Of a stretch of DNA of 64,000 nucleotides, positions 8,030-37,256 are shown in pieces. The first letter of the stretch is position 1. Every line of letters begins with the position of its first letter. This DNA is from Parcubacteria group bacterium GW2011_GWA1_40_21. GTDB taxonomy: Bacteria; Patescibacteriota; Minisyncoccia; Phycocordibacterales; GWA1-40-21. Below the pieces are notes generated by a model, which saw nothing but the letters and a program-made list of their open reading frames with translations, searched no databases and was not told the DNA's origin. The translations under genes and the position numbers were made by a program. The DNA lies in NCBI GenBank assembly GCA_000996205.1, contig LBYO01000004.1:4051-68050 (forward strand), read 5' to 3'.

Positions 8030-8144
8030 ATATTCTTATTTATCCCCAGTCTAACATTGACACCTGCGACATATCTGATATCATACTATTACAAATGGCT
8101 TCGGCCCGACTCCGCCGCAAGGCGGAGGTAAAAAATGAAAAAAT

Positions 8145-8534: not shown

Positions 8535-8697
8535 TGATTATTTATGCAATGTTTCCAATTTTCAATATAATATCACATCCTAATCGACAATAAAAATCAG
8601 AAAAAGTCGCTCTGACTCCCTGACTGCAAACCCCCTTCAGTCCCCCTTGTCATTGGGAAAACCGGAGTAGTTACTTGGCGGTTTCACCGCCAAGCGC

Positions 8698-21384: not shown

Positions 21385-21414
21385 ATTTTTGTCTTATACG
21401 CGCCCTTTTACACA

Positions 21415-21441
21415 TTCTGTGGGTATCTGATACCCACAGAA
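21415..21441. promoter_or_regulatory. 27-bp perfect palindrome ttctgtgggtatctgatacccacagaa (family F)
   Basis: Perfect inverted repeat in the metG / transporter intergenic gap. Confidence 0.4.
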
Positions 21442-21465
21442 CACAGAATATCTTATGCGGCTGAT

Positions 21466-22716
21466 TTAGTTAAGAGATTTTTTCTCCTCGGTCATTTTCC
21501 CCTCCACCACATCGCGAAAATATTCGGTGATAGTCGCGGCAATCGGCACAGAGAGAAGCACCCCGAGAAATCCGGCTAATTTATATCCGATGACAAGCGC
21601 CAAGATGACCAATATCGGCGAAACGCCCACGACCTTCTTAACCACCAGAGGGTAGATAAGATGATTTTCAAATTGTTGAATGATGAGATACAGTCCGACG
21701 ACAAGAAGACCGGCTGTCAGCCCCCCGTCGGCAAAAGACAAGAGCACCGCCGGAATCGCGGCTATTACAGGACCAAAGAGAGGAATAATTTCAAAAAACG
21801 CGGCGAAAACGGAAAGAAGAATGGCGTTTTTTACTCCCAATATGGTGAGACCCAAGTATATAAGGACTCCGACAATCACCCCGAGAAGAATTTGCCCTTG
21901 CATCCAATAACCTATTTTCTGCTGGGATCTCTTCCAAAGACTGATGACATATTTCTCGCTTTTCAGCGGTGTGATAACTTTCAGAAAATTCACCACTCCG
22001 TCCTCTTGAACCGCGAGATAAAACGACAAGACGACAATAAGCACAAAAGACAGCACGCCTCCGAATATCGCGCTTACCGTGTTCACAAATCCGCTTGAAA
22101 AATGGGACAAGACATTTTGGAAACCGGTTATCAAATCTGACAAGCCGGCTTTCTTGTTGATTTTATTTCCCGCCACATTGTTTTCCAGACTAGCCATTTC
22201 AAGGCTGGCGGAAATTTTTTCGGCAATCTCCTTTGACTCCGCAAGTCCTTGCGAGACATTTCGCGCTATGTCTCGCGACTGATCCGCTTTTTCTTTGCTT
22301 AAAGGATTCCAAACGGCGGTTGATTCAAAATATCGCGGGAAGGCGTTGGTAAAATTGAGAGTTTCATTAAGAAGAGTCGGCAGAAAGAAATAAAAGAAGC
22401 CGATAAGCGCGCTGAAAAGTCCGGCATAAGTGATGATTACGGCAGGCAGTCTGGCCACTCTTATTTTCGCGAACCACTTGACCAAGGGCTCAATCGCGGA
22501 GGCGATAACGACTGACGCGAGCACCACAAGGACAAGATCGCTCACCAAATAAAGAAAACCGACAATGGCGAAAATAACTATCGTCTTTATGATAGTCCCC
22601 GAATTTATATTAACAATGAGATTTTTACTTTCTTTGTCCATTATTGTAATAATATCACTAAATAAATTTTTATTAAAGCCAAAAAAAGCGACATCGCATG
22701 TCGCTTTTAGATTCAA
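21466..22716 (-). CDS. AI-2E family transporter (PerM/UPF0118)
   Basis: 416 aa, 8 TM. The topology and C-terminal conserved region are typical of AI-2E. An alternative start at MDKESK (22641) is possible; the longer form overlaps the upstream gene by 4 nt. Confidence 0.7.
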   Translation of the reverse strand: MNLKATCDVAFFGFNKNLFSDIITIMDKESKNLIVNINSGTIIKTIVIFAIVGFLYLVSDLVLVVLASVVIASAIEPLVKWFAKIRVARLPAVIITYAGLFSALIGFFYFFLPTLLNETLNFTNAFPRYFESTAVWNPLSKEKADQSRDIARNVSQGLAESKEIAEKISASLEMASLENNVAGNKINKKAGLSDLITGFQNVLSHFSSGFVNTVSAIFGGVLSFVLIVVLSFYLAVQEDGVVNFLKVITPLKSEKYVISLWKRSQQKIGYWMQGQILLGVIVGVLIYLGLTILGVKNAILLSVFAAFFEIIPLFGPVIAAIPAVLLSFADGGLTAGLLVVGLYLIIQQFENHLIYPLVVKKVVGVSPILVILALVIGYKLAGFLGVLLSVPIAATITEYFRDVVEGKMTEEKKSLN

Positions 22717-23981
22717 AATTTGAGAGTTGGAAGAAATTCATTTTTGTCTTTGAATCGGCCGATTATGGCGAGATTGAGATATTTATCTTGGAAAATTTTA
22801 TTGGCAATTTTTTTCACATCCGCGGCGGTGACAGCTTGTATCTCAATGATAATTTGCTCCGGTGTTTTTATTGATTTTTTTAAAACCTCCTGATAACCGC
22901 AATATTCGGCAAATGAATCCGAGGTCTCAAGTCCCAAATAAAGATTGCCCTGAAGCTGTTGCTTTACTTTGTTCAATTCGTTCTCGGAAATATTTTCATT
23001 TTTCAATCTCTTGAATTCTTCCATAATGGCGCTAATTCCTTCCTTGACTTGTTTATTGTCCAAACCTGCGCTCACTTGAAGAACCCCGTGATCGGTGTAA
23101 GTGTCATTTTCAGCTCGGACATAATAACAAATACCCATCTCATCTCTGAGTTTTTGGAAAAGACGCGAGCTCATCCCTCCGCTAAGCATAGTCGCCAATA
23201 CTCTCATTGCCGGATTATTTTTGCTGTAAGTATTGAATGACCTTACCCCTAAAACGATATGTGTTTGGTCCGTGTCTTTATACTGCAATAATATCTCCGG
23301 CTTTTTTTGAGATTCAAAAGTTTTTGTTTTATCTTTCTTTTTGCCTCCGAAGATGCCACCCCATATTTTTTGAATATTAGCGAGGGTTTTTTTCTCGTCA
23401 AATTTTCCAGCGACAACCACTGCCGTTGCAGAAGGAACATAATGTTTCCTCCTATAATCCAAAAAATCGCTTCTTTTAAGATTTTTTATATTTTCTTTCG
23501 TGCCCGCTATGTCCCACCCTGCCGGCTGATCTCCGTAAAGCAGTCTCATAAAAATTTCCTGAACTTTCCGATGGGGCAAATCTTCATACATATTGATTTC
23601 CTCTATGATGACCCCTTTTTCTTTTTCAATTTCATTCTCATTGAAAACGGGATTCAAATACATATCGGAGACGACATCAAGAAGCATATCCAAATGCTTG
23701 AAATCTGCTTTAGCGTAATAGCCGGTATACTCTTGCGAAGTGAAAGCGTTGTATTGCGCCCCAACGCTGTCCAGCTCCCCACTTATATCTATTACCTTCG
23801 GCCTCTTGGTCGTACCCTTAAAGCACATATGCTCAAGAAAATGTGAAAGTCCGTTTATTTCTTTCGTTTCGTATTTTGAACCCGCCTCAACCATCACAAG
23901 GACAGTCACGGTCGGATTGTCTTTCGTCGGAACGGTAATCACCCTTAGTCCGTTTTTTAAAATTTTTTTATTGAATTTCAT
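22713..23981 (-). CDS. M16-family zinc peptidase (pitrilysin-like)
   Basis: Inverted zinc-binding motif 'HFLEHMCFKGT' (HxxEH) plus a downstream Glu region, 422 aa. Confidence 0.8.
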   Translation of the reverse strand: MKFNKKILKNGLRVITVPTKDNPTVTVLVMVEAGSKYETKEINGLSHFLEHMCFKGTTKRPKVIDISGELDSVGAQYNAFTSQEYTGYYAKADFKHLDMLLDVVSDMYLNPVFNENEIEKEKGVIIEEINMYEDLPHRKVQEIFMRLLYGDQPAGWDIAGTKENIKNLKRSDFLDYRRKHYVPSATAVVVAGKFDEKKTLANIQKIWGGIFGGKKKDKTKTFESQKKPEILLQYKDTDQTHIVLGVRSFNTYSKNNPAMRVLATMLSGGMSSRLFQKLRDEMGICYYVRAENDTYTDHGVLQVSAGLDNKQVKEGISAIMEEFKRLKNENISENELNKVKQQLQGNLYLGLETSDSFAEYCGYQEVLKKSIKTPEQIIIEIQAVTAADVKKIANKIFQDKYLNLAIIGRFKDKNEFLPTLKF

Positions 23982-24007
23982 TTTGTTTTATTTCGTTTTA
24001 TCTATAA

Positions 24008-24553
24008 TTAGCATTTGAGTTTCTCCTGTTTGTCCCGAAATCCTATCGGATTTTTCGGCTTTGTTTTCTCCGTCAAAAGACGCTTAATCGCTTCGAAAAT
24101 ATCCCTCATCTGCTTATCATATTTTTTCTCCATATTTTCTATTTTTTCTTTCAAATCTTTGTTTGCTGAAAGAAATTCTCTCATTTGCGTGAAAGTTCTG
24201 ATAATTTGGATATTGACCATTATTGCCCTATCGCTATTTAAAACACTGGAAAGCATAGCAACGCCCTGCTCCGTAAAAACCAAAGGGCTTTTTCTTAATC
24301 CTTTTTTATCTGCGGCGGATATCACAATTTGTGATTTCCAAATATTAGTTTCTTCTTGATTAAGTTGAAACATAAAATCAACGGGAAAACGATCAATATT
24401 TCTCCTCACTGCCTGATTAAGCGACCTTGTTTCTACTCCGTAGAGATTGGCAAGATCTCGGTCTATCATTACTTTCTTGCTCCTAATCAAAAATATCCCT
24501 CTGACAATCCTCTCGTTTGGAACGGTTATAATTTCTTTATCACTCTTTTTCAT
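24008..24553 (-). CDS. ORF6N-domain protein (phage antirepressor-like DNA-binding)
   Basis: 'IRSKKVMIDRDLANLYGVETRSLNQAVRRNIDRFPVDFMFQL' matches the ORF6N/KilA-N-like signature. Confidence 0.55.
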   Translation of the reverse strand: MKKSDKEIITVPNERIVRGIFLIRSKKVMIDRDLANLYGVETRSLNQAVRRNIDRFPVDFMFQLNQEETNIWKSQIVISAADKKGLRKSPLVFTEQGVAMLSSVLNSDRAIMVNIQIIRTFTQMREFLSANKDLKEKIENMEKKYDKQMRDIFEAIKRLLTEKTKPKNPIGFRDKQEKLKC

Positions 24554-24695
24554 AGATATCTTTTTTCAACAAAATTGCTTTATCTTCCGCAATCAAACAA
24601 TATCACGCCAACAAATTTTAGACAAAAAAATAAGGCGAGAGGCTCTATTTAATCAGTTCGATTAAATAGAGACATTCTCGCCTTATGCCATTTTG

Positions 24696-25283
24696 TTAGG
24701 TTGCCAAACTTGATTTGGCTTCCTTAACAATTTTTACTACCTCTCTGCCAAACCCGAAGGGAAAGATGTAGCGTTTAAAAAAAATCTCTTCAAGTTTTCT
24801 TATCAGCACCGAAGCGAGCCTCATGTCTTCCTTGCACTGCTCCTTCTCATAACTGTCACTGGGGTCGGGTCTGATATTGCCAGTCCTGACTGCTTTGCAA
24901 AGCAGTTCCATTTCCTCTACACAATAATCCTTCCCTTTCAACTTTAAGATATAATTACTTTTTTCTATCAATGATTCATCCAAGTCAGCTCTGATATTAG
25001 AGCCCCTTGCCGGATAAGTCCCTTTTTCTCGTTTCACTCGATCCTTGGCGAAAATATATGTCGCCTCCGTCCTGTCGACATATTGCTTTATATCATTTGG
25101 CAACTTGCTATTAAAGTCATCGACCATGAAGTATAATTCTCCGTAATCTTTTTGAGACACTTTGACCCCACAAATCTCACCTTTAAACGAAGAGGCTTTT
25201 ACCAACTTAAAATCTTTTGACTTCAGTACACCGTCTTTTAAAAATACATATATATATAAACTCATAACAATCCTCCCTTTCAA
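24696..25283 (-). CDS. hypothetical protein
   Basis: 195-aa ORF (likely start MSLYIY at 25265). I recognise no motifs. Confidence 0.35.
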   Translation of the reverse strand: MKGRIVMSLYIYVFLKDGVLKSKDFKLVKASSFKGEICGVKVSQKDYGELYFMVDDFNSKLPNDIKQYVDRTEATYIFAKDRVKREKGTYPARGSNIRADLDESLIEKSNYILKLKGKDYCVEEMELLCKAVRTGNIRPDPSDSYEKEQCKEDMRLASVLIRKLEEIFFKRYIFPFGFGREVVKIVKEAKSSLAT

Positions 25284-25424
25284 TATTTTACCGCCATTTA
25301 TTTTGCTTGGCAGCTATTTAACAAAGAACTTTATCAGACTCCTGATAACAGTTTGAATCCTTTTGTAAGGGTACACGCTTTTGACATTTTGTCAAGCGTT
25401 TTTGCCATAATTTATTTTTTACCC

Positions 25425-26783
25425 TTATTTTAAGCTGTTTTTTATGAAACTGGATAATTCACCTGTCTTTACTCTCTCCTGTTTGCCTGTATCCCTGTCG
25501 CGGACAGTGACGGTGTCATTTTCCAAGGTGTCAAAGTCTATCGTCACGCAAAACGGCGTGCCGATTTCGTCTTGGCGGCGGTAGCGTTTACCGATGTTGC
25601 CGTTGTCGTCAAAAACTATCGGGCGGATTTCTTTTTTTAATTCACTGAAAATAATTTGAGCTTTTTTCACCAGCTCCGGTTTATTTTTAAGCAGAGGGAA
25701 AACAGCAACTTTCACAGGCGCAACTGTTGGTTTGAATTTCAGGAAAATTCTTTTTTCACCGCCCATTTCATCTTCCGTGTAAACCTCGCAAAGAATAGCG
25801 AGAATCATTCTATCCAAACCGAATGAAGGCTCAATGCAGTGAGGAACAAATCTATCTTTCGTTTCTTCATCATAATATGATAAGTCAGCGCCACTCTTCC
25901 CTATATGAGCAGACAAATCAAAATCAGTGCGATACGCCAAACCAAGAAGCTCTTTTCTGCCGAAAGGATAATCAAATTCAAAATCTATGGTTCTTTTGGA
26001 ATAATGCGCTCGGTCTTCCGCCGAGACTTCAAGCTCATGGATGCTGTCTTTGTCAAGTCCGATATCCGCAAGCCAATCTAAAATCTCCGTTCTAAAACTT
26101 TCAAAATATTTTTCCCACTCGCTTTCTCTCGTGAAATATTCTATTTCCATCTGCTCAAATTCTCTAGCGCGGAAGAGAAAATCTCTTGGAGAGATTTCAT
26201 TCCTGAAAGCCTTGCCGATTTGAGCCATACCGAACGGCAATCTGGGATGGAAAGAATCCATCACATTCTTGAAATTAACAAACATTCCTTGCGCAGTTTC
26301 CGGACGGAGATATGACACGGAACCTTTGTCCTCCACTGGACCGACATTGGTCTTAAACATCATATTGAACATAATCGGAGAAAACCAATTTTCTGCACTA
26401 CCACACTTTTCACATTTTGGAGGAACAAAAACATAAGAGATGGAAGGCATTCCCTTTTTCATATTCTGAAAATGATCCGGTGGAAAGCCTATTTGATCAG
26501 CCCTGTATTGAGAGTGGCATTTACTACACTCAACAAGCGGGTCGGAAAATCCCGCGATGTGCCCCGACGCTTCCCAAACTTTTGCATTCATAAGAATCGC
26601 CGCGTCTATTCCATACATATCGTCTCGCTCTTCAACAAACTTTTTCCACCACGAATTTTTTATGTTATTTTTGAGCGACAAACCAAAAGACCCGTAGTCC
26701 CATGCTCCGGAAAGACCGCCGTAAATTTCCGAGCCGGGATAAATAAAGCCGCGCCTTTTGCAAAGCGATATTATTTTTTCCAT
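25425..26783 (-). CDS. glyQS: glycyl-tRNA synthetase (alpha2 type)
   Basis: 'MEKIISLCKRRGFIYPGSEIYGGLSGAWDYGSFG' is the canonical dimeric GlyRS N-terminus, and the class II motifs are present. The longest ORF extends to 26825. Confidence 0.85.
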   Translation of the reverse strand: MEKIISLCKRRGFIYPGSEIYGGLSGAWDYGSFGLSLKNNIKNSWWKKFVEERDDMYGIDAAILMNAKVWEASGHIAGFSDPLVECSKCHSQYRADQIGFPPDHFQNMKKGMPSISYVFVPPKCEKCGSAENWFSPIMFNMMFKTNVGPVEDKGSVSYLRPETAQGMFVNFKNVMDSFHPRLPFGMAQIGKAFRNEISPRDFLFRAREFEQMEIEYFTRESEWEKYFESFRTEILDWLADIGLDKDSIHELEVSAEDRAHYSKRTIDFEFDYPFGRKELLGLAYRTDFDLSAHIGKSGADLSYYDEETKDRFVPHCIEPSFGLDRMILAILCEVYTEDEMGGEKRIFLKFKPTVAPVKVAVFPLLKNKPELVKKAQIIFSELKKEIRPIVFDDNGNIGKRYRRQDEIGTPFCVTIDFDTLENDTVTVRDRDTGKQERVKTGELSSFIKNSLK

Positions 26784-26852
26784 TTTTCCGCCTTCGGCGG
26801 TCTCTTTTTTCTTTTTGATTTCCATAATTGTTGAATAATAGACAAAAGAAGG

Positions 26853-28793
26853 CTATTTCACAACCTTATCTTCTGAATATTTGAAGTCAGGATCGGTCTT
26901 TAATGTAGTTGTAAGGGAAGGTCGCGTTTCTCCAACTGATGCGGATGTAAAGCTGTCCGTTCCGCTTAAGACTGATTCGTTTAGAATTACGGGGCTCTGT
27001 CCCTCATGACTCAAGCTCGGGAGGAAGGAAATTTGGAAAGATGCTTCTCTCGGCGGACCTTCAATACCCGCGCCGGCTTCTATGTCTCCCGCGTCCCAGA
27101 CCACTTCCGCCCTCGCGGAATTAAATGAAATATTTTCACTGGCGGGATTTGTCTGCGAAAGCCATTTGACATAAAGAGGAAGACTTGCGGCGACTTTGGC
27201 GTCTTTGATCTTGCTTGAAGTGTTTGTTATCGTCCAGATCACCGTATAAGTCGTTTCACTTTCGGCTTTTGGAGGCATTGGTCCGGTGTTCTCAAATGGT
27301 CCGCTCCAGTGAATAGCGCGGGAAGACAGCCTTGCGTCAGTCGCTATTTTGATTATTCTTGTCGCGGAATACAAAACTTCCTGAGGGACATTGTCTCCTT
27401 CAAGCCTTTTGCCTCTCGCGACTATATCCAGAGAAATTGAAGGCTCAATCATAAGCGAGGATCCGCCGATATGAGAACTCAGACTCCCGAATGAAAAGTT
27501 TAAATTCCCGCTCTCGCCCGGGGACATTGACCCTAAAGCCGGATTATTCGTCTTGTCAAAGACGATGGTATTGTCAACCGACCTGTAAAAACCCCGCTCG
27601 GCGGAAACCGATGATTTGTTCAGGGTGTCGCCTTTAAACTTTATCTGAATCTCCGCGTCTTTAATCGGGGTCGCGAGATTGTTTTTCCAAGCGACATCGG
27701 CTCTTATGATTTTACTGCTCTCGGAAACAAAATCATTGGCAGTGTTGCCGTCAAGGGCGATTTGAATGCCGATAAAAGGCTTCTTGATTGAAACTTCCGC
27801 GAGAGAAGTGACAATGGGCGTGGCTATCACCTTCTCATCTTTGTCGCTTGAAATTCCCGTCGTAAATCTTAGAATCTTATTCTCTCCGTCCTGACCCTGC
27901 ATCTTGCCGTAAATTTTAACGGTTTTTTTCTGTCCGGCGGACAAATCTCCTATGGACCAAAGATTATTGTTCGTGTCAAGCGATTTTTCGCTTGAATCAA
28001 CAAAGACGAAACCGAACGGATATTCCGCCTTGAGCAAAAGATTTCTGATCGGATTGGAAGAATTTGAAACAACAGTAACGGAAAAATCAACCGCCTGATT
28101 GGCATTTATTTCTTTAAGGCCGGACACTTCAATGCTCACCGGCGAGTCGCTTATGACGACTTCATAAGTTTTTTCTTTATAAAAAATCGCGCTTGAACCG
28201 GAAATGCGATACTCCACGGTCACCTTTATTTCTTTTTTGCTTTTTTCTTCGCCGAAAAGTATGGCCTCAACTCTTTTTACGGCGCTCTCTCCTTGGGGTA
28301 TATCGCCGAGCTCATCCCTCGTCCTCTTGAGCTCTGTCTTTAAATCATCTATGGCGCGCGCTCCCTCCGGATACTCAACGCGGAGATCCGCCGCTTTGAG
28401 GTCGGTTTTATTGTTGTTGTCAACTTTTATATCAAGGGAGATTTTCTCCCCGCCGGAAACCGAAACTGGTCCCGTTATGGAAATTTCTATATTGTTAGCC
28501 GAAATTGTGTTTGACCCCCAATAAAATCTGTAAAAAGCCACGCCGGAAGCAATTAGAAAAAATAAAATTGAAACAATAAAAAATTTCATCACAAAAGTCA
28601 TTCCTTTCTTCTCCTTGATGAAGATTGGCTTTTTTTCAAGACTTTCTTCACCTTCGTGAGACCATTCGCCCGCCACATCATAAGATTCGCTTTTCAAGTG
28701 GCGGCTTTTCCTGTCCGTTCTCGCGCGATTATCTCTTGAATAAAGTCCTCTTTTTAACTTTTCAATACCGCTATTGTTATCTTGGGATTCCAT
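26853..28793 (-). CDS. hypothetical membrane-anchored protein with repeated beta-rich extracellular modules
   Basis: 646 aa. It has a charged N-terminal cytoplasmic tail and one TM (FVMKFFIVSILFFLIASGVAFY), followed by a long extracytoplasmic region. Confidence 0.45.
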   Translation of the reverse strand: MESQDNNSGIEKLKRGLYSRDNRARTDRKSRHLKSESYDVAGEWSHEGEESLEKKPIFIKEKKGMTFVMKFFIVSILFFLIASGVAFYRFYWGSNTISANNIEISITGPVSVSGGEKISLDIKVDNNNKTDLKAADLRVEYPEGARAIDDLKTELKRTRDELGDIPQGESAVKRVEAILFGEEKSKKEIKVTVEYRISGSSAIFYKEKTYEVVISDSPVSIEVSGLKEINANQAVDFSVTVVSNSSNPIRNLLLKAEYPFGFVFVDSSEKSLDTNNNLWSIGDLSAGQKKTVKIYGKMQGQDGENKILRFTTGISSDKDEKVIATPIVTSLAEVSIKKPFIGIQIALDGNTANDFVSESSKIIRADVAWKNNLATPIKDAEIQIKFKGDTLNKSSVSAERGFYRSVDNTIVFDKTNNPALGSMSPGESGNLNFSFGSLSSHIGGSSLMIEPSISLDIVARGKRLEGDNVPQEVLYSATRIIKIATDARLSSRAIHWSGPFENTGPMPPKAESETTYTVIWTITNTSSKIKDAKVAASLPLYVKWLSQTNPASENISFNSARAEVVWDAGDIEAGAGIEGPPREASFQISFLPSLSHEGQSPVILNESVLSGTDSFTSASVGETRPSLTTTLKTDPDFKYSEDKVVK

Positions 28794-29094
28794 AAAAAAA
28801 ATTATACCACAAGAATTAAGTTGTAGGGACTAGTTTATAGTTTTTAGGTTATAGTGATTAGGTTGCAGGTGAAGAAGATGGCATCAATTTCCAATTCCTA
28901 ATTTCTAATTGATCTAATCAAATCCCAATCAACAATCAACAATAAATAAGACTTAATTTAATTAACTTTTAATTGGTCATTTTCTTAGTTGGTTTTTGAA
29001 GTTTGATTAGAAATTAGATCAATTAGGAATTAGTAGTTTGATAGGCCACTCTTCCTTTCTTCCCTACAACCTACCTAAAACCTACAACCTAGAA

Positions 29095-29688
29095 TTACAA
29101 CTGCGTTTCTTTTAGGGCTTTGTTTATTTGGAGGACGGCATCGCGACCGAGAGGGCTCATTTTAGAAACAAAATCTTTTGTCCAAACGGCGGAAGAAAGA
29201 AATTCCTTGAAATCGGCGGATTCTGCCATATATCCGAGACTATGCAGAATTCTCATAATCAGCAAGTATTCGCAGTTCCTCAAGAGGCTCTCATCAAGAT
29301 TTTCCTTTTCCAAAAACTCGCAAGCGGATGAGACATGGCTGAAAAGAATCTCGTTTTTCTCCTCGCCTCGGACAAGACGCAAAAGAAGCGCGAATGTCTT
29401 GGCCAACAATTCAAACTTATCACGACTTCCGTTCAAAGAACGGCGCAAATCATTTTCTTTTATCGCTCCGACGATTCTCCAAATATATTTTCCTTTAACC
29501 AGAGAAATTCTTGAATAAGAATAATCTTGAAGGCTATAGCGAAGTTTTGACTTAAGAAGCCTCACCCCTTGCGCCGTCGCGCCAATCATTCCAAAATCCT
29601 TGGTGAATATGGAAAAATATTTGTTCGCCTCGCCAACACTCTCCCCGCTCAACACAAAACCTTCAGTGTGATATATGTGATGCGTCAT
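29095..29688 (-). CDS. recO: DNA repair protein RecO-like (short)
   Basis: The N-terminal OB-fold pattern 'TEGFVLSGESVGEANKYFSIFTKDFGMIGATAQGVRLLKSKL...LVKGKYIWRI' resembles RecO. Confidence 0.5.
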   Translation of the reverse strand: MTHHIYHTEGFVLSGESVGEANKYFSIFTKDFGMIGATAQGVRLLKSKLRYSLQDYSYSRISLVKGKYIWRIVGAIKENDLRRSLNGSRDKFELLAKTFALLLRLVRGEEKNEILFSHVSSACEFLEKENLDESLLRNCEYLLIMRILHSLGYMAESADFKEFLSSAVWTKDFVSKMSPLGRDAVLQINKALKETQL

Positions 29689-29864
29689 TTGTTAGAATTT
29701 ATCGTAGCATTTCGCCAAAATCTCTTTTCTTCAGAATTATCCCCTCCGTCAAATAAATTTGATGCGCCATAAAATTTACTCGTAAATATCATGCGTGCCG
29801 ATGTCTGTGAAAATAACATTGCCGTCTTTTAAAACCGCGAAGAAGGCACTATCTCCATATTTTT

Positions 29865-30152
29865 TTATTTATGAAGATTAGAATATTCTTTCTCCAAAAA
29901 CGATTCTAATTTTTCCGTTTTTCCTTTTTTGTGTTCCTTTAATGCTTCTTCAACTCGCTTGTCCAAACTTCTGGCTTTTTCCCCTTTCAAGAAACAAACA
30001 GGGAGACTTTTAGCTTTCATGCCCTCATACTCTTTTCGCGAAATAACCACCAAATCTTCGTTTTTTGTTTTTATTAAATTTTTAGGGATAGTTATGGTAT
30101 TCATTATTTTTATGGTATCAACAACACCAAAAAAGGTCAACGTCATTGCCAA
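29865..30152 (-). CDS. Phd/YefM-like antitoxin-like small protein
   Basis: 'MNTITIPKNLIK...DLVVISRKEYEGMKA' resembles the antitoxin beta-alpha fold motif. A 30-codon RelE/YafQ-like C-terminal remnant (…VLKDGNVIFTDIGTHDIYE*) lies just downstream on the same strand at about 29745-29835. Confidence 0.35.
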   Translation of the reverse strand: MAMTLTFFGVVDTIKIMNTITIPKNLIKTKNEDLVVISRKEYEGMKAKSLPVCFLKGEKARSLDKRVEEALKEHKKGKTEKLESFLEKEYSNLHK

Positions 30153-31156
30153 TTTAAAAAATATAGAATTTCTTCTTTATCGGCCGTATTCCTTAATGAT
30201 CGATTCATACTCCGAGATAATGGCGACTGGTAAGTTTTTTTGAAGGCTGAGAGTAAAAATTTTAACTGATGTATTCGCAAATCAAATTTATCATCCGGAA
30301 ATTGAGCAAGGTACTTTGCCCCAATTTTTATCATTTTTATCATTTCTTCGTCTCTCGGTTTTTCATCTCTCTCAAAAGATGTCTCATTGTTTTGTTCTTC
30401 TTCCGCAATATCGTGATAATACAAAGCGGGCGCATAAATAAGATTCCACAATTCTGCTACTGTGAAATTGAAATTGGTTTCTGAATGCTACTGTGAAATT
30501 GAAATTGGTTTCTGAAGCGTTTATCATTTCCAGGACTGTTTTATTGGTCATCCAATATGTCTCTGCTTGAATTGAAGCGATTTCTTTTCCAACACGACTG
30601 TCAACTGACTGAATCCCTAAATCTTGATATTCCTTTTTAAGCAACTTCTTTGTTCCCGAGAAGATGAACGCTGAACCAGTCCACCGTATATCATACGCTG
30701 AAGGCCTTTTAGCACACCCTCTGGGTGCGGAACTTTTTCCGCAAGCAATAAGCCAACCTGACCAATAGAACCCATACCGGTCAAAACTTCATTAATATCA
30801 TTTCTGTTTTTAAAAATATCTTCAAATGGCACCCCAATCTTTGGATTGTCAAAAAAATCGTCTATCCAATGCGCGCCGTAAACAAGATACGATTTGGCGA
30901 TAATTTCGCGCGGGTTGTCTTTTGAGGTGATTCCCACAATAAATGCCTGCACTTCTATATCTGAATAAACATGGACATCGCTAGTCTCTATGCCAAGTTT
31001 ATTTAAATCAAGCATTTTGAGATCGCTGATAAAATTATTTTCTCCTTCTCTCACGAAATGCAAAATATTTTCCCAGTTTGGTACTTCGTCATATAGCGCT
31101 TCCAGTTTTGGAGCTAATTTTTTTTCAAAATTATTATTTTCCATCATTTCTGGCAT
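30143..31156 (-). pseudogene. disrupted HD-domain protein gene (three overlapping ORF fragments)
   Basis: ORFs 30617..31156, 30384..30644 and 30143..30451 overlap in different frames. The fragments contain 'HFVREG…' and 'ALYYHDIAEEE' (HD-motif-like). A perfect 31-bp tandem duplication at 30455-30516 shifts the frame. Confidence 0.5.
30455..30516. repeat. perfect tandem duplication, 2 x 31 bp (tgctactgtgaaattgaaattggtttctgaa)
   Basis: Two identical adjacent 31-mers. 31 is not a multiple of 3, so the second copy frameshifts the enclosing ORF. Confidence 0.9.
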
Positions 31157-31188
31157 AGAAATTTGTTTTTGATAAATTAAATAAAATT

Positions 31189-34100
31189 TTACGCTTCTAT
31201 CTTGGCTTTTATCACAAAGCCGTCGGTGGAGATTTCCTGTCCGTCTTCCACAACGGCGTTGAATTCCAGTTTTTCTATGCCTGCTGATTTTTTGATTTCC
31301 TCGGCGAATTTTTCCATAAATTCTCTGGCATGGATTTCAGCTTGAACATACAAAATTATTTTCTGGCTGGTATTAAGACCGGCTTTCTTTCTCAAATCTT
31401 GAAGACCGCGAATCAAATCTCTCAAACTACCCTCTTCTTTGAGCTCGGGCGATATTTCCGTATCCAACTCAACCTCGCCTAAAATTTTCTCATCAAAAAT
31501 AATCTCTTTGACATTCAGCTCATCTTTGATCAAATCCAACATTTCTTTCTCCACTTTATGGACTTTATAACTTTTGACTTTTAACTTTTTTAACGCCTGT
31601 CTCACTTTTATATTCGCCTTTGCTCTAGCCTCCAACCCCAAAGAAACAATTCTCCTAACCTCCTCCATATCCTCAATTAAACTTTCGACTTTCGACTTTC
31701 GACTTTCGACTACTTTTACCCATTCTTCCAAATGAACGCTCTCTTTATCCTTTCCTTTGCCGTTCAATTTTTGGTACAAATATTCCGCCAAAAAAGGAGT
31801 GAATGGCGCCATAATTTTTGACAGTTCGGTCAAAACATACTTCATCGTGGCAAGCGCGAATTGTTTGTCTTTATAGTCATCTCCCTTTACCCTTTCTCTT
31901 GATCTGCGGACATACCAAGTGGAAAATTCATTGATAAAATCTTTGATCGGGCGGCCAGATTTGACGGTATTGTAATTTTCAAGCCCCTCCGTCACTTCAT
32001 TTATAAGAATATTGAGCTTGGCGAGAATCCATCCATCAAGAACATTTTCACTGTCTTCGCATTTCGTCTTGCCGTCATACTCGCCTTGATAAAGTTCAAA
32101 AAAATTGAATGTGTTAAGAAGAATATTTATCACTTTATTGTGAGCGTCCTTGATTTCCTCATCCGCAAATTTTATGTCTTCCGCCTGCATTATCGGACTG
32201 GTCATAAGATAATAACGCAAAGCATCCGCTCCGTACTTGTCCATATTCAGCATCGGGTCGGTGTAATTGCCTTTGGACTTGGACATTTTGCTCCCGTCTT
32301 CGGCTAAAATTGTTCCGGTGGTAATGACATTTTTGAAACTTGCATCGTCAAATAAGATGCCCGAAATGGTGTGCATATAGTAAAACCATGTTCTTGTTTG
32401 AGCCACATATTCGGTCACAAAATCACCCGACGGAAAACGGCTGCCGAGTTCTTTTTCATTTTCAAACGGATAATGATATTCGGCAAACGGCATCGCACCA
32501 GATTCAAACCATCCGTCAATAACTTCCGGCACTCTTTTCGTTTCGCCGAGACAGTCTTCACCACTGCAAACCAGATCAACTTCATCTATATAAGGCCTGT
32601 GCAAATCAAGCTCGTAATTTTCATTGTGCGGAAGCGGAACGAAGTCCAGTTTTCTTATCTCCGCGTTTTCAATAAAAAATTCTCCGTTTCCCCGCATAAG
32701 AAGCGCCTCTTTCGCATTCATCCCGAATGATCCGGCGAACAAAAGCCATGCAGGAGAGTCGTGAGTAACAATCAAAATATTTTTATTGTTGTGCCGTTTT
32801 TCAATGTCGTAAATAAAATCGGCGGTTCTTTTTTTAATATCGGAGTAATTTTCCCCCTGCGGAGTATTTTTTATAAATCGTTCTTCAAACGAAGTAAAAT
32901 AGTCGGTGTATGCCGATATAGATTTTCCATCAAATGTTCCCGCGTTCAATTCTCCGACTCTATTTTCAAGAATAATGTCAGATGGCTCAATTTGGAGCTT
33001 CCGTGCGATAATTTCCGCAGTTTCTTTTGTCCTCACAAAAGGCGAGCTGAAGATGATGTCAATTTTTTCAACTATCAAATCGTCCCCCGCTTTCGCCGCC
33101 TGCTCTCTGCCTTTCTCCGTCAAATGACTTGAATTTTTAGAATCGGAACTTATGAAAGCTTTTACATTGTTATCCGCTTCTCCGTGTCGAACCACAAAAT
33201 ATTTATTGCCGGATTTTTTTGTTTTTTTCTTTAATTCATCCACAGAACCGACAAGTTCAATTTTTCCGCATTTCTCGCATTTCCAAATCGGCAGAGGTGA
33301 GGCCCAATAGCGATTGCGGGAAATATTCCAATCCGGAGCGCTTTCTATATTATTCAGAAATCTGCCGTGTTTTAGGTGGTCTGGAAACCAATTTATTTTT
33401 TCATTAAGCTCCTTCAGGCGATTTTTCACTTTTTGGATGTTGATAAACCACGAAGAAAGCGCGCTGTAATAAAGCGGCGTTTCGCAACGATGGCAATGCG
33501 GATAGGAGTGAGTATGCGCCTGTTTGGCGAAAATCAATCCTCTTTTTTCCAAATCTTCTTTGATGTATTTCTCTCCTTTCTTCAAATAAAAACCTTGGAT
33601 AAATTCCGGCGCTTCTTTGTTGAAATGACCGCTTTGGTCTAAAAGCGGAATTGTCGGCAAATCGTATTTTATGCCGATATTATAATCGTCTTCCCCATGC
33701 ATCGGAGCGATGTGGACGATGCCGGTTCCGTCTTCCGTGGTCACGAAATCAGCCGAAACGACATAATGCGATTTTTTATTGAAATTTTTTACCGCCGGAA
33801 TTTCATAAAGTGGTTCGTATTCAAGTCCGACAAGTTTTTCACCGGAAAATTCACTTATTATTTCATAAGGTTCCGACAAAATACCGAGTCTTTCTTTCGC
33901 CAATATTAGATTTTCTCTGTCTTCAGTTTTTTCCGCCTGAGGCGGATCCGCCTCAGGCGGAAGATTTAATCCGTCAGCTGACGGATTAGATTTTAGATTA
34001 AGCTTGCAATAAATCAGCTCCTGATTTATTGCAAGCGCAACATTGCCCGACAATGTCCACGGCGTAGTCGTCCAAGCCAAAAGATAAGTATTTTCCGGCA

Positions 34101-34773
34101 AGTTGTGTTTTTTCGGATTTTTAACTTTAAACTTCACTATCACCGCTTCTTCCGTCACCGTTTTATAACTGTTATCCATCGCCACTTCCGCTTTGGCCAA
34201 AGGAGTCTCGCATCTCGGGCAATACATCAAAACCTTCCGACCTTCATAGAGCAAATCTTTTTTGTGGATTTCTTTTAACGCCCACCAAACGCTTTCAATG
34301 TAAGAATTGTCCATCGTCATATAGGAATTATCAAATTCCACCCAGCGGCCGATTCTCTCCACATAATTTTTCCAGTCGTGGGCAGTTTCTAAAACAGCGG
34401 AACGGCAAGTCTCGTTGAACTTTCCAACCCCCATCGCTTCAATTTCTTTTTTGCTCTTGAGCCCGAGCCTTTTTTCAATCATATTTTCAATCGGCAAGCC
34501 GTGGCAATCCCAGCCCCACCTTCGGCGAACATGATACCCCCGCATTGTCTTATAGCGAGGAATCACATCCTTAGCAACGGAAGAAAGCAAACTGCCGTAA
34601 TGAGGCAGACCTGTCGCAAAAGGCGGTCCATCATAAAAGACAAACTCGCCTTTCGGTGAATCCTTTGCCAAAGTTTTTTCAAAAATTTTATTTTCTTTCC
34701 AAAAACGGAGAGTTTCTTCCTCCCTTTTAGCCGTTTCGCTTTTGTTGTCTTTTTCCTTGTCGTTATTGGTCAT
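31189..34773 (-). CDS. ileS: isoleucyl-tRNA synthetase with an embedded histidine-phosphatase (PGAM-like) domain
   Basis: Carries 'PPFATGLPHYGSLL' (HIGH), 'WTTTPWTLSGN' (editing CP1), 'KMSKSKGN' and a zinc knuckle 'IWKCEKCGK'. Residues ~516-722 are 'YFVVRHGEADNN…FSSPFVRTKETAEII…ENRVGELNAGTFDG…ILIVTHDSPAWLL', a complete histidine-phosphatase core placed before 'LDLHRPYIDE'. Confidence 0.9.
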   Translation of the reverse strand: MTNNDKEKDNKSETAKREEETLRFWKENKIFEKTLAKDSPKGEFVFYDGPPFATGLPHYGSLLSSVAKDVIPRYKTMRGYHVRRRWGWDCHGLPIENMIEKRLGLKSKKEIEAMGVGKFNETCRSAVLETAHDWKNYVERIGRWVEFDNSYMTMDNSYIESVWWALKEIHKKDLLYEGRKVLMYCPRCETPLAKAEVAMDNSYKTVTEEAVIVKFKVKNPKKHNLPENTYLLAWTTTPWTLSGNVALAINQELIYCKLNLKSNPSADGLNLPPEADPPQAEKTEDRENLILAKERLGILSEPYEIISEFSGEKLVGLEYEPLYEIPAVKNFNKKSHYVVSADFVTTEDGTGIVHIAPMHGEDDYNIGIKYDLPTIPLLDQSGHFNKEAPEFIQGFYLKKGEKYIKEDLEKRGLIFAKQAHTHSYPHCHRCETPLYYSALSSWFINIQKVKNRLKELNEKINWFPDHLKHGRFLNNIESAPDWNISRNRYWASPLPIWKCEKCGKIELVGSVDELKKKTKKSGNKYFVVRHGEADNNVKAFISSDSKNSSHLTEKGREQAAKAGDDLIVEKIDIIFSSPFVRTKETAEIIARKLQIEPSDIILENRVGELNAGTFDGKSISAYTDYFTSFEERFIKNTPQGENYSDIKKRTADFIYDIEKRHNNKNILIVTHDSPAWLLFAGSFGMNAKEALLMRGNGEFFIENAEIRKLDFVPLPHNENYELDLHRPYIDEVDLVCSGEDCLGETKRVPEVIDGWFESGAMPFAEYHYPFENEKELGSRFPSGDFVTEYVAQTRTWFYYMHTISGILFDDASFKNVITTGTILAEDGSKMSKSKGNYTDPMLNMDKYGADALRYYLMTSPIMQAEDIKFADEEIKDAHNKVINILLNTFNFFELYQGEYDGKTKCEDSENVLDGWILAKLNILINEVTEGLENYNTVKSGRPIKDFINEFSTWYVRRSRERVKGDDYKDKQFALATMKYVLTELSKIMAPFTPFLAEYLYQKLNGKGKDKESVHLEEWVKVVESRKSKVESLIEDMEEVRRIVSLGLEARAKANIKVRQALKKLKVKSYKVHKVEKEMLDLIKDELNVKEIIFDEKILGEVELDTEISPELKEEGSLRDLIRGLQDLRKKAGLNTSQKIILYVQAEIHAREFMEKFAEEIKKSAGIEKLEFNAVVEDGQEISTDGFVIKAKIEA
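33933..34036. repeat. three consecutive perfect palindromes inside ileS coding sequence
   Basis: ccgcctgaggcggatccgcctcaggcgg (33933-33960), aatccgtcagctgacggatt (33968-33987) and gcttgcaataaatcagctcctgatttattgcaagc (34002-34036). Together they encode …INQELIYCKLNLKSNPSADGLNLPPEADPPQAEKTEDR…. Confidence 0.7.
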
Positions 34774-34829
34774 ATTTATTCAGAGAATACCACAGTTTAT
34801 CATTTTTCCATCGCTTTTCAAAAAAATTT

Positions 34830-34860
34830 CCCCACTTGGAAACTTAGTTTCCAAGTGGGG
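34830..34860. terminator. 31-bp perfect palindrome ccccacttggaaacttagtttccaagtgggg + A/T runs
   Basis: Identical to the element at 6283-6311. Followed by a second hairpin (aacgcattggt…accaatgcgtt) at 34869-34917, upstream of ileS. Confidence 0.5.
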
Positions 34861-34940
34861 AAAAGAAAAACGCATTGGTCTCTTCAGGATATTTAATCCT
34901 AAAAAAACCAATGCGTTGATTTGTCCGTAAAAAATACTGC

Positions 34941-35315
34941 TCACAAGATCACCATCGGATGACCCCTTAATGCAGATTCGATGCCGGACGGAGAACTGTT
35001 CGCCGCTTCATTATTCGCTACTTCAGTGACTATTCTATCAATAATCTCTAGAGGGGTTTCTTTCGGCGCGCTGATCGGCTCCTCTGTAAGCTCCTCCACT
35101 TTTACCCTAAGCCCTAAGTTTCGCGCTAACCGATTAAGCGCGTTTGGATTAAATATTTCAGGAATTTCACTTTGAGAAATTTTCTTCTCAAGACAAAACC
35201 CTCTAACAAAATTCTCGATTCCCACAATCAACTGCAAAGACAGTCCATCTATCTTATCTCCAGAAAAAGGCATGTTTTCCACTCCAATAAATTTTTGAAT
35301 CAAAGGCGGCCACAA
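34941..35315 (-). CDS. hypothetical protein
   Basis: 124-aa ORF with no recognised motifs. An alternative start MPFSGD is possible. Confidence 0.35.
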   Translation of the reverse strand: MWPPLIQKFIGVENMPFSGDKIDGLSLQLIVGIENFVRGFCLEKKISQSEIPEIFNPNALNRLARNLGLRVKVEELTEEPISAPKETPLEIIDRIVTEVANNEAANSSPSGIESALRGHPMVIL

Positions 35316-35489
35316 GCCGTCTTATGTTATGAACTAAATTTTTCTTCTGAAAGGATACCTTGCCCAAACAAAAAGTCAACGATTAAGAAGGCGGGTAGCT
35401 TGTAGCTGTTTAACTTTTTAGGAAGAAAGTCTGGCGCTCCTATTCTTATTCTTACCTAAAAAGCTACAAGCTAATAAGCTTCCCCAAAA

Positions 35490-37256
35490 CTACATCCTCT
35501 CCGGAACTTGAATTCCCAGAAGATTGAGGCCGTTTTTCATTGTCGCGGCGAAAGAGGCGGTGAGAGCAACCTTGTAAGGAGAAATTTCGTCGTTAGTATC
35601 CACTATCTTGTGTTTGGCGTAAAAACTGTTGAATGATCCGGCAAGTTCAATCAAGTAAGAAGCGATATAGTGAGGAGAATATTCCTTCCCCGCCCTCTCC
35701 ACGATTTCAGGAAAGCGATAAAGCAATCTTTCCAATTCTGATGTTTCGGTGACGACTTTTTTTGCGGAAGCCTTTATCCCCTCTCCTTTGGCTTTCTCCA
35801 AAACAGATTTCGCTCTCGCGTAAGAATATTGAAGATACGGTCCGGAATCTCCCTCAAAAGAAATTGATTTGTCAAAATCATATACTATGTCGCTTCCAGT
35901 CGTATGTTTTAGTATTGAATATTTTATCGCTCCGATTGACACTTTTTCAATAATTTCTTTTTCCATCTCTTCGTTGTAATTTCTGTCTTTGATTTTTTCC
36001 TCCACGAGTTTTTGAGTATCTGTCATAAGCGACTCCGCCGTGATAACATCGCCCGTCCTTGATGACATTTTACCGCTTGGAAGCCGAAGCATTCCGTGAG
36101 AAATATGCTTTGTTTTTTCCGCCAAGTCCGGAAAAACAATTTCCATCGCCTTCAGCAAAACCTTAAAATAGTCATTTATCTCATTACCTGTCACGACTAT
36201 TGAAACATCGTATTGATAATGTTCATCGTATTTTATTTTCGCCAGTCCGAGCTCTTTGGCTTCGTAAGTCGGCAACCCTTCCGAATTTATGAAAACCCTC
36301 GTGTGCAATCCGTATTTCTCTCCTTTAAACACGATAGCGCCGTCACTTTTCTCAAAAACGCCATTCTTCAAATTTTCCTCCACTATCTTCTTGCCAAAAT
36401 CCCCTGTCTCTCTTTCAAAGAAAATGAAATCAAATTCCGTGCCCAGCTTTTTGTAAATTTCTCCAAAATGCTTAAGGGATACATCCTTACCCCAATCATA
36501 CAGTTTATTTATCTCATCATCGTTTCTATCATAAATTTTTTTGTTTATCACCTCAAGCTCTCCGCTCTCAATTGCTTTGTTTATTTCATCAACCCTTCTT
36601 TTAAAATCATCAATTCCGCTAAGTGATGAGAACGAACTCGAACCTAAAGAGTAAGACATCGCCAAAAATTTAACCTTGTTTGTCAACATAGCTTTATCAT
36701 CTGGCATTAAATCTCTTAGAGTTTTCATACCCAGGACAGCTTTTGCCACATGAAGCCCTACATCGCCTTGATAGCACGCCCTTTTCACTTCCGCGCCGTG
36801 AAATCCAATGATTCTGGACAGAGATTCTCCGATGGTGTTGCTCATCAAATGTCCGATGTGAAATTCCTTGAAAGGATTCGGGTCTGTGTATTCAATCATT
36901 ACTTTCCGCCCTTTAAGCGATTCGTTCGCGCCAAAACTATCGCCTTCCGTAATCGCCTCGCCTACACTTTCCGCGAAAAATTCCTTTGATAGAAAAAAGT
37001 TAATAAAGCCGGCGCCGGCGACTTCCGCTTTTTCAATTTCTTTTATTTCGCGCTTCCTTATTTCCTCCGCTATCTTTTCCGCCAAATCTATCGGTTTCGT
37101 TTTTAATTCTTTGGCGTAAGCCAAAGCCGCATTGGAAGAATAATCGCCGAAGTTTAAATCAGTCGGGTGTTCCAAATGAATATCATCCGCCGTGATGGAT
37201 GGCATCTTTAGAGCTTCCTGTATTGTATTTTTAAGTTTTTCTTGAATCATAATCAT
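35490..37256 (-). CDS. argS: arginyl-tRNA synthetase
   Basis: 'FHIGHLMSNTIG' (HIGH), the N-terminal Add-1-like domain, the C-terminal DALR anticodon-binding domain 'SPHYIASYLIELAGSFNSFY' and the end '…LGIQVPERM'. Confidence 0.9.
   Translation of the reverse strand: MIMIQEKLKNTIQEALKMPSITADDIHLEHPTDLNFGDYSSNAALAYAKELKTKPIDLAEKIAEEIRKREIKEIEKAEVAGAGFINFFLSKEFFAESVGEAITEGDSFGANESLKGRKVMIEYTDPNPFKEFHIGHLMSNTIGESLSRIIGFHGAEVKRACYQGDVGLHVAKAVLGMKTLRDLMPDDKAMLTNKVKFLAMSYSLGSSSFSSLSGIDDFKRRVDEINKAIESGELEVINKKIYDRNDDEINKLYDWGKDVSLKHFGEIYKKLGTEFDFIFFERETGDFGKKIVEENLKNGVFEKSDGAIVFKGEKYGLHTRVFINSEGLPTYEAKELGLAKIKYDEHYQYDVSIVVTGNEINDYFKVLLKAMEIVFPDLAEKTKHISHGMLRLPSGKMSSRTGDVITAESLMTDTQKLVEEKIKDRNYNEEMEKEIIEKVSIGAIKYSILKHTTGSDIVYDFDKSISFEGDSGPYLQYSYARAKSVLEKAKGEGIKASAKKVVTETSELERLLYRFPEIVERAGKEYSPHYIASYLIELAGSFNSFYAKHKIVDTNDEISPYKVALTASFAATMKNGLNLLGIQVPERM

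Follow-up and report, generated by a model that had tools for sequence, protein, structure and literature searches.

The question raised by this locus is how a second, apparently complete enzyme has come to lie inside a housekeeping aminoacyl-tRNA synthetase (aaRS), and what it could be doing there. The stretch analysed, called the window below, comprises 64,000 nucleotides of contig LBYO01000004.1 from Parcubacteria group bacterium GW2011_GWA1_40_21. Its ileS gene encodes an isoleucyl-tRNA synthetase (IleRS) in which an original prediction, made from the letters alone, had recognised a complete histidine phosphatase (HP) domain. To our knowledge, no reaction of IleRS needs a phosphomonoesterase.

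The nested phosphatase

The features of the domain and its gene are given below. Residues are numbered along the window protein in amino acids (aa), and conservation is counted in 199 homologous sequences that carry the insert at the same place (site A).

31189-34773, minus strand: ileS open reading frame (ORF), type-2 IleRS with nested phosphatase, 1194 aa (ORF call, TIGR00392, Pfam and AlphaFold2 (AF2))
32641-33204, minus strand: nested histidine phosphatase, aa 524-711, 188 aa, insertion site A in CP3 (relative P0196 and the ends of free HP proteins, Pfam, AF2, Foldseek)
33205-33213, minus strand: entry linker SGN, aa 521-523 (N523 kept in 198/199)
33181-33189, minus strand: RHG motif, with R529 (198/199), the nucleophile H530 (199/199) and G531 (198/199)
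33031-33033, minus strand: R581, second phosphate-binding Arg, in the motif SPFVRTKETA (198/199)
32950-32952, minus strand: E608, predicted proton donor (Glu in 195/199, Asp in 3)
32761-32763, minus strand: H671, distal His of the phosphate pocket, in VTHDSP (198/199)

On the whole protein the His_Phos_1 profile (PF00300) matches aa 526-691 (E=9.9e-32), and on the excised interval 32608-33228 it scores 113.8 bits against a cut-off of 21.7 (E=1e-32, profile positions 2-167 of 194). The limits of the insert were set by an insert-free relative that is 68% identical (P0196) and by the ends of free-standing HP proteins. The interval first proposed, aa 516-722, does cover the insert and also takes in about 8 and 11 flanking synthetase residues. 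The catalytic hallmarks R529, H530, R581, E608 and H671 are all present at verified coordinates, as had been claimed, and N536 and E641 are each conserved in 195 of the 199 sequences. The five catalytic hallmarks align one to one with residues of the Hydrogenobacter phosphatase PspA: H530 with His9, the residue mutated in structure 4IJ6, R581 with the Arg of SSPLKRT, E608 with the Glu of EDRIIEID and H671 with VSHTVP.

Modelled alone by AF2, the insert reaches a predicted local distance difference test score (pLDDT) of 94.0 and a predicted template modelling score (pTM) of 0.91, and it again exceeds pLDDT 90 within the model of the full-length 1194-aa protein (pLDDT 82.2, pTM 0.72). The guest domain is thus predicted to fold autonomously. 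By its profile, its set of catalytic motifs and its alpha/beta/alpha sandwich fold of the phosphoglycerate mutase (PGM) type, the insert is a member of branch 1 of the histidine phosphatases. A Foldseek search gave 306 matches in the PDB at E<=1e-3, led by PspA (4IJ6, E=2e-14, TM 0.77). The closest structures were PspA (4IJ5/4IJ6), mycobacterial hydrolases, PhoE, CobC and glucosyl-3-phosphoglycerate phosphatase, with classical dPGMs ranking lower.

None of the function-specific NCBIfam models reaches its cut-off on the insert: in bits, PspA (NF045917) scores 71 against 350, CobC (TIGR03162) 74.4 against 162.9 and SixA (TIGR00249) 37 against 74.5. The same is true of the dPGM models, both of NF038349 (dPGM_arch), which is the best NCBIfam match at 90.9 against 225, and of TIGR01258 (25.6 against 81.7). 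The substrate motifs of dPGMs are ERHYG and HGN, and in their place the insert reads GELNAGTFDGK and VTHDSP. It therefore belongs to the histidine phosphatase superfamily but to no characterised family, and it most resembles the small phosphatases of branch 1 of the PhoE/PspA/CobC kind and not a classical phosphoglycerate mutase. The earlier label of PGAM/SixA-like was right as to the superfamily and is narrowed by this placement.

The likeness to PspA (Hydrogenobacter, 4IJ5/4IJ6), PhoE (Geobacillus, 1H2E/1EBB), CobC (6E4B, 6NRU) and the mycobacterial GpgP (4QIH) extends to fold and size (TM 0.70-0.77), at about 25% identity to these small phosphatases. All of them, however, are independent cytosolic enzymes with defined substrates, whereas the HP studied here is nested in IleRS or operon-coupled to it and falls below the cut-offs of their families. 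The GC content of the insert (0.399) is close to that of the rest of ileS (0.414), as is its GC content at third codon positions (GC3), and on this match the insert is a long-standing resident of the gene. In a subgroup of site-A enzymes of about 1090-1100 aa (P0200, P0223, P0224, P0230 and P0233), the phosphatase is without some 30 cap residues (window aa ~611-640) and keeps its catalytic core, a variant in which access of the substrate may be changed.

Host enzyme, free-standing relatives and recurrence

The remaining features of the synthetase in the window are these.

33205-34773, minus strand: N-terminal part of IleRS, aa 1-523, with the first Rossmann half, CP core, CP1 editing domain, CP2 and first half of CP3 (aligned with 1ILE 11-482)
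34591-34605, minus strand: HIGH-like motif PHYGS (coordinates verified)
34051-34074, minus strand: CP1 motif WTTTPWTL (coordinates verified)
33712-33729, minus strand: CP1 motif GTGIVH (coordinates verified)
33268-33279, minus strand: first CP3 zinc knuckle CEKC (C499/C502), just upstream of the insert (coordinates verified)
32551-32568, minus strand: second CP3 zinc knuckle CSGEDC (C736/C741), which is site A' elsewhere (occupied in P0357 and P0278)
32275-32289, minus strand: KMSKS motif (coordinates verified)
31192-32640, minus strand: C-terminal part of IleRS, aa 712-1194, with the end of CP3, second Rossmann half, KMSKS, anticodon-binding domain and C-terminal domain (aligned with 1ILE 488-820)

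The identity of the host is not in doubt. The ileS model TIGR00392 scores 836.9 bits against a cut-off of 621.4, in two stretches split by the insert, and Pfam finds tRNA-synt_1 in two pieces (aa 21-523, then onward), Anticodon_1 (aa 913-1062), DUF5915 (aa 1101-1193) and His_Phos_1. The best PDB matches are the type-2 enzymes of T. thermophilus (1ILE, 702 bits) and Priestia (IleRS2, 8C8U, 690 bits) and the yeast enzymes; the S. aureus enzyme (1FFY) is far below these at 292 bits, and the C-terminal DUF5915 domain is present. The models of the mupirocin-resistant forms MupA and MupB (NF000257/NF000258) reach about 710 bits against 1900. The single continuous frame (31189-34773) and the intact synthetase motifs on both sides (PHYGS, WTTTPWTL and KMSKS) are as originally described, and the class I signature and CP1 editing motifs are invariant or nearly so among homologs of the window enzyme. 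A low-complexity stretch rich in proline and acidic residues inside CP1 (aa 263-284, 33922-33987; pLDDT <50), shared by only some of the close relatives, constitutes a second variable insertion, a small one.

Alignment with 1ILE places the insertion between the two zinc knuckles of CP3, as predicted: query residues 15-520 correspond to 11-482 and 722-1054 to 488-820, so that about 200 residues stand where Thermus has about 5. CP3 connects CP2 with the second Rossmann half, and its topology differs among the enzymes of Candida, Thermus and Staphylococcus, of which only that of Thermus has the CP3 zinc motif (PMC7191050). Among the 199 insert-bearing homologs, only 86 keep both CP3 knuckles and 108 are entirely without Cys at that place, while zinc site 1 at the CP1 hinge (C185/C188/C427/C430) is near-invariant. 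CP3, with its varying topology and its often lost zinc knuckles, is therefore a plastic, permissive place. The insert is cleanly absent from P0196 and is for this reason dispensable for the folding of the synthetase.

An exhaustive HMMER search with the insert alone returned, besides IleRS-embedded copies, numerous proteins some 190 aa long and about 40% identical. Four of these free homologs were looked up (P0261, P0264, P0272 and P0296), and all four are encoded 1-10 nucleotides upstream of an insert-free ileS on the same strand. In the window the neighbours that define this context are as follows.

35490-37256, minus strand: argS (ArgRS), upstream neighbour of ileS (Pfam; in related lineages the free HP lies between argS and ileS)
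29095-29688, minus strand: recO, downstream neighbour of ileS (Pfam RecO_N; same synteny in L081, L082, L086, L088 and L090)

Three of the four loci (L086, L088 and L090) have the full order argS-HP-ileS-x-recO, as in the window; in the fourth (L087), argS is missing upstream and ileS is cut off by the end of the contig. The free proteins begin with '..NKYY.LRHG' and end with '..GE.RKLN*', which are the exact limits of the nested insert, and N523 of the window enzyme is the N of their 'NKY' start. Because the ends of the free form coincide with the limits of the insert, the nested segment is a whole gene from start to stop.

When metagenomes were scanned with an alignment of the free forms, 80 loci were obtained. 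A free HP ORF lay directly upstream of ileS or overlapped it in 50 of them and the nested form occurred in 21, with one partial nested copy (L152), four loci having no downstream sequence and four placed elsewhere. An ileS thus follows immediately in 50 of the 54 informative loci with a free HP (93%), many of them with argS on the other side. The four free orthologs that do not adjoin ileS are L097, L098, L106 and L174; those of L097 and L106 have beside them a predicted FAD-binding protein, which carries a GGGxAG-type motif. No free HP gene was found upstream of the insert-free P0196 ileS or of the Gracilibacteria-type insert-free ileS, so the linkage of HP and ileS is frequent and not universal.

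The recurrence of the nested form was determined in two ways. A whole-protein search of a collection of 5.8 billion proteins gave PF00133 together with PF00300 in 118 of the best 120 clusters listed, down to 53% identity; the matches include an exact copy from another assembly and entries named Parcubacteria, Paceibacterota and Patescibacteria. Database listings of this kind hold the best 120-150 matches, and counts taken from them are lower bounds. When one genome from each of 185,579 species was scanned for the C-terminal junction motif PLPH[ND]x[ND][FY][ET]L, 439 sites emerged, 422 of which encode a relative of the insert; the architecture thus recurs in 422 species-representative genomes. 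In 80 of 80 species-representative loci, the N-terminal part of the synthetase, the insert and the C-terminal part follow in succession, and in 79 they share one frame. The sole case with the N-terminal part and the insert in different frames (L034:2557-4609) is a frameshift, possibly in a pseudogene, or an assembly error.

These counts rule out an assembly chimera or a frameshift join (118/120 clusters, 80/80 GTDB loci and 422 motif-confirmed genomes). Neither the E-values nor the presence of the architecture in hundreds of independent assemblies leaves room for a chance match. A truly split IleRS, which short proteins on long contigs and a recurrent class of 700-760 aa had brought to mind, was also rejected: those loci hold many fragmented genes, and a 725-aa representative has a 1170-aa member in its own cluster. 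The taxon labels of several metagenome-assembled genomes (MAGs) are unreliable. A MAG labelled Flavobacteriaceae (L079), as well as L001 and many third-party (TPA) assemblies labelled 'uncultured Candidatus Saccharibacteria', carry the Paceibacteria-type IleRS-phosphatase gene, which probably reflects mis-binning or generic labelling and not a true taxonomic spread.

The insert is more divergent than its host. Across 15 representative homologs it is 31-47% identical, against 56-82% for the synthetase body, and across the 199 site-A sequences the phosphatase domain is only about 38% identical. Set beside the near-invariance of the catalytic residues in both parts, this divergence shows that both activities, synthetase and phosphatase, are under purifying selection.

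Nesting sites, other cargo and gene neighbourhood

Each HP copy in 258 full-length IleRS with at least one HP was placed on the window protein with a custom alignment script. Four sites were found, in window numbering: A (aa 523/712), A' (the second knuckle, about aa 740), B (about aa 771-779) and C (about aa 895-905). Two of these loops are in CP3, one is in the Rossmann fold and one is at the start of the anticodon-binding domain. The last two are empty in the window.

32395-32481, minus strand: loop aa 765-793 (HYPFEN..FP), empty here, site B elsewhere (AF2 and site occupancy)
32050-32097, minus strand: loop aa 893-908 at the start of the anticodon-binding domain, empty here, site C of Gracilibacteria/Peregrinibacteria-type IleRS (66 HP copies at C)

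The site-B loop has the lowest AF2 confidence of the catalytic core (aa 765-778, 780-784 and 786-793 below pLDDT 50). HP was found at A only in 159 proteins, C only in 45, B and C in 16, A' only in 16, B only in 5, A' and C in 3, A and A' in 3, A', B and C in 2 and A' and B in 1; eight single-HP proteins are ambiguous between A and A' (window aa 712-721), and one valyl-tRNA synthetase (ValRS, P0262) was also caught in the classification. The B and C forms are those of Gracilibacteria, Peregrinibacteria and Peribacteria. Beyond site A, in other Patescibacteria, a protein holds one to three copies, all catalytically intact. A simple N- or C-terminal fusion of HP and IleRS was seen in none of the 258 proteins.

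The nearest neighbour of a copy is one at the same site in 153/162 cases for A, 28/32 for A', 22/24 for B and 66/66 for C. Because the copies cluster by site, each insertion is old. Recent intragenic duplication was rejected as the source of the multi-copy forms, their nearest neighbours being same-site copies from other proteins, and recent horizontal acquisition was rejected on the clustering together with the match of GC and GC3 to the gene. The nucleophile His is present in 308 of 308 copies, counting all sites and the free forms. In Patescibacteria, IleRS has a dedicated evolutionary partner in this phosphatase, be it encoded immediately upstream or nested at any of the four sites.

Site B takes other cargo as well. 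Across lineages it holds HP, GNAT, an endonuclease-like DUF559 domain, an alpha/beta-hydrolase (serine hydrolase), HAD, or HP with a P-loop kinase. Such variable cargo was seen in the Gracilibacteria/Peregrinibacteria-type proteins P0410, P0409, P0447, P0458, P0473 and P0479, and P0473 also has a Zeta-toxin/AAA_33 kinase at site C. Among solved structures, the P-loop kinase of P0458 comes closest to Pnkp1, a kinase of RNA repair (4XRP, E=1e-5), in a weak match of 28 bits. One IleRS (P0457) has no HP and carries two tandem HAD phosphatases at site B, similar to COG0546 and phosphoglycolate phosphatase; by analogy, this pair may be a functional counterpart of HP, with an unrelated fold in the same slot. 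The nesting is not strictly limited to IleRS, since the ValRS P0262 (NF004349, 411 bits) has an N-terminal part followed by four tandem His_Phos_1 domains, three catalytically complete and the fourth cut by the contig end. In-frame insertions also occur inside the CP1 editing domain of IleRS, namely an IS200-like Y1 transposase (P0290, also listed for P0479) and DUF559 (P0473), which suggests that these are derived from mobile elements.

Four aaRS genes lie within 17 kb of the window on one strand (20023-37256): MetRS (20023-21384), a class II aaRS (25425-26825), IleRS and ArgRS. The order ArgRS-IleRS-RecO-DUF11-class II aaRS is conserved in L082. Between ileS and recO (29689-31188) are a 179-aa ORF (30617-31156) with no Pfam or NCBIfam match and small overlapping ORFs; in L081 recO directly follows ileS, and other lineages have an unannotated ORF of 100-178 aa at that position. 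A 181-aa protein (24008-24553) with an ORF6N domain (E=2.9e-32) and a weak match to phage Rha is a phage-type regulatory protein amid housekeeping genes. No T-box or other RNA leader was found at ileS at Rfam gathering thresholds. In L094 a YbaK-type tRNA_edit deacylase (8109-8585) starts directly after the stop of an insert-free, Gracilibacteria-type ileS. In L093 (4483-5004 and 8332-8841) rpiB overlaps the start of an insert-free ileS and a Ser_hydrolase-like gene abuts it, of the family that is nested at site B in P0447.

Possible functions and meaning

We read the locus as a whole small-phosphatase gene nested in a housekeeping IleRS, where it would act as an active 1:1 partner on a small phosphomonoester, and we give this a rough probability of 0.55. 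A gene of the PhoE/PspA/CobC kind has become an internal domain of CP3 between the two zinc knuckles, and the one polypeptide carries two complete active sites. The guest is predicted to be an active phosphomonoesterase working through a phospho-His530 intermediate, with R529 and R581 binding the phosphate, H530 as nucleophile, E608 as acid and H671 completing the pocket. It would work beside IleRS and not through a fixed channel to the aminoacylation site, since the attachment point and the copy number vary between lineages. A small phosphomonoester is the most likely substrate, for example a nucleotide, a phospho-amino acid or a sugar phosphate, because the nearest structural relatives and the HAD analog both belong with the small-molecule phosphatases and the nested domains lack a basic charge (they are mildly acidic, with a median pI of 5.7-6.3 at all four sites). 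A basic charge of the free HP was considered as a sign of RNA or IleRS binding and was discarded; the charge tracks that of the partner IleRS and of the proteome, both being basic in L086 and L090 and both acidic in L088.

Several points weigh against this reading. No specific-function hidden Markov model reaches its cut-off, and the assignment of the substrate is a guess. The tight and repeated tie to IleRS, and once to ValRS, is not explained by a generic small-molecule phosphatase. N-terminal fusions are unseen among the classified proteins although the free gene lies only 1-10 nucleotides upstream, which hints that a position near the catalytic core matters. Finally, the P-loop kinase that is paired with HP in some relatives has an RNA-repair polynucleotide kinase (PNK) as its best solved relative and would fit an RNA substrate.

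A bolder proposal, which we hold only tentatively and at low odds, is that the formation of isoleucyl-tRNA in Patescibacteria depends on the phosphatase as an obligate accessory activity, a new aaRS-coupled step captured repeatedly. The phosphatase would unblock or heal tRNA(Ile), or destroy a phosphorylated IleRS poison, and would have been an operon partner first and then nested in four loops. If this were true, the slots filled by GNAT, PNK-like kinase, HAD and serine hydrolase would make up a modular toolkit for quality control and repair within an aaRS.

A phosphatase directed at tRNA(Ile), for instance one that removes a 3'-phosphate left by an RNase or a phosphate installed by a toxin while IleRS supplies the tRNA binding, is unlikely but would account for the strong, repeated tie to a tRNA-binding enzyme, both in operons and at four nesting sites and in ValRS as well. 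A kinase and a phosphatase are the classic pair for the healing of RNA ends, and some IleRS do join HP with the Pnkp1-related kinase; the deacylase that follows ileS in L094 indicates, moreover, that tRNA-acting accessory enzymes cluster with this gene. We know of no member of the histidine phosphatase superfamily that acts on RNA ends, however. The nested domains are mildly acidic and the basic free forms merely mirror their proteomes, the HAD analog resembles the COG0546 small-molecule phosphatases and not a PNK-type 3'-phosphatase, the kinase match is weak, and the variable attachment sites disfavour a precise reach to the CCA end.

Target protection or detoxification, in which HP, like the GNAT, kinase and serine-hydrolase modules of site B, would modify a natural IleRS inhibitor or a toxic substrate analog at the very enzyme under threat, seems to us rather improbable. 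IleRS is a well-known antibiotic target, site B holds classes of enzyme that modify small molecules (GNAT, P-loop kinase, alpha/beta-hydrolase and HAD), and the NCBI curators already recognise an ileS_w_GNAT class. Against this, no IleRS inhibitor known to us carries a phosphomonoester, and the HP of site A is inherited stably throughout the class in a conserved architecture, which has the look of housekeeping and not of an arms race.

It is very unlikely that HP is the 'missing' glycolytic PGM of Parcubacteria, hidden by its embedding in IleRS. PGM is reported to be absent from several shallow parcubacterial clades (Jaffe et al. 2020, PMC7304191), the fold is the PGM fold and the best NCBIfam match is the archaeal dPGM. 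Gracilibacteria, however, also carry HP-IleRS and are reported to be entirely without glycolysis (PMC7304191, resting on one cited genome). The dPGM scores (90.9 against 225 and 25.6 against 81.7) are far too low, the closest structures are phosphatases, and the motifs E-x-N-x-G-x-F-x-G-K and T-H-D-S-P are those of the phosphatase subgroup and not ERHYG and HGN. A metabolic enzyme would, in addition, give no reason for a 93% linkage to ileS.

Slightly less probable again is a protein phosphatase that dephosphorylates IleRS or a partner, as regulation or as reversal of a kinase toxin. The histidine phosphatase fold can act on proteins, as in PGAM5, Sts-1 and SixA, a covalent or 1:1 tie to a putative substrate would make sense, and some relatives embed a kinase too; but the SixA model falls short (37 against 74.5 bits), the nearest structures are metabolite phosphatases, and this role has no specific support and no sign of IleRS phosphorylation in these organisms. 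That the locus is an artefact or a dead passenger (a chimera, a mis-joined gene or an inactive spacer remnant) deserves almost no credence: many database entries of the family are indeed fragmented, but these are frameshifted calls in error-prone assemblies in which neighbouring genes are broken too, and the architecture is intact in the 422 species genomes, with catalytic residues invariant despite about 60% sequence divergence.

With a nested small phosphatase as the preferred reading, the nearest curated precedent is NF040702 (ileS_w_GNAT), likewise an IleRS with an extra catalytic domain. The window protein scores 309.7 bits on this model against a cut-off of 1999 and has no GNAT match in Pfam; GNAT-bearing IleRS of Gracilibacteria and Peregrinibacteria often carry His_Phos_1 too, and the phosphatase-bearing form, which appears commoner, has no equivalent curated model. 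The CP1 editing domain of IleRS, ValRS and LeuRS is also a catalytic domain nested in the Rossmann fold through two linker strands, but CP1 occurs universally and works on mischarged tRNA, a product of the enzyme itself, whereas HP is lineage-specific, separable as a gene, found in four loops and without a known link to aminoacylation. Fusions of His_Phos_1 to an unrelated enzyme are known in the RNase H/acid phosphatase Rv2228c (NF005567) and in PFK-2/FBPase-2 (1BIF), both among our matches; these are end-to-end fusions, in contrast to the internal insertion into an aaRS described here. The domains appended to eukaryotic aaRS (GST, WHEP, EMAPII and UNE-I) are likewise lineage-specific additions that give new associations, but, unlike the nested HP, they are mostly terminal and non-catalytic interaction modules.

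A full-text search of 7.7 million PubMed Central (PMC) papers and 0.34 million preprints found no published description of an IleRS-phosphatase pairing, and the AARS Online catalogue paper has no phosphatase among its aaRS domains. The pairing is present in public databases, annotated piecemeal and under inconsistent names ('class I tRNA ligase family protein', 'histidine phosphatase family protein' or 'hypothetical'); the domain and its host each belong to a known family, and it is their combination for which no description was found. The original prediction that this is not a known IleRS architecture accordingly holds in that we found no described or named subdomain, and fails in that the segment is common among homologs, being clade-wide in Paceibacteria/Parcubacteria and automatically tagged PF00300.

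The finding gives annotators a concrete naming rule, and it shows that CP3 and two other loops of IleRS tolerate the insertion of whole enzymes, a property of use in protein engineering. Few enzymes have been studied as closely as the synthetases, whose set of domains is regarded as catalogued, and yet an intact phosphatase is a constant companion of IleRS across much of Patescibacteria, in at least 422 species-level genomes for one of the four nesting sites alone. Repeated convergent coupling of this kind is normally the mark of a true functional dependency. Resolving it could account for some of the unusual insertions in proteins of CPR (candidate phyla radiation) bacteria, and it could bring to light a new step that is accessory to tRNA charging, or to the protection of tRNA or aaRS, in organisms with minimal genomes.

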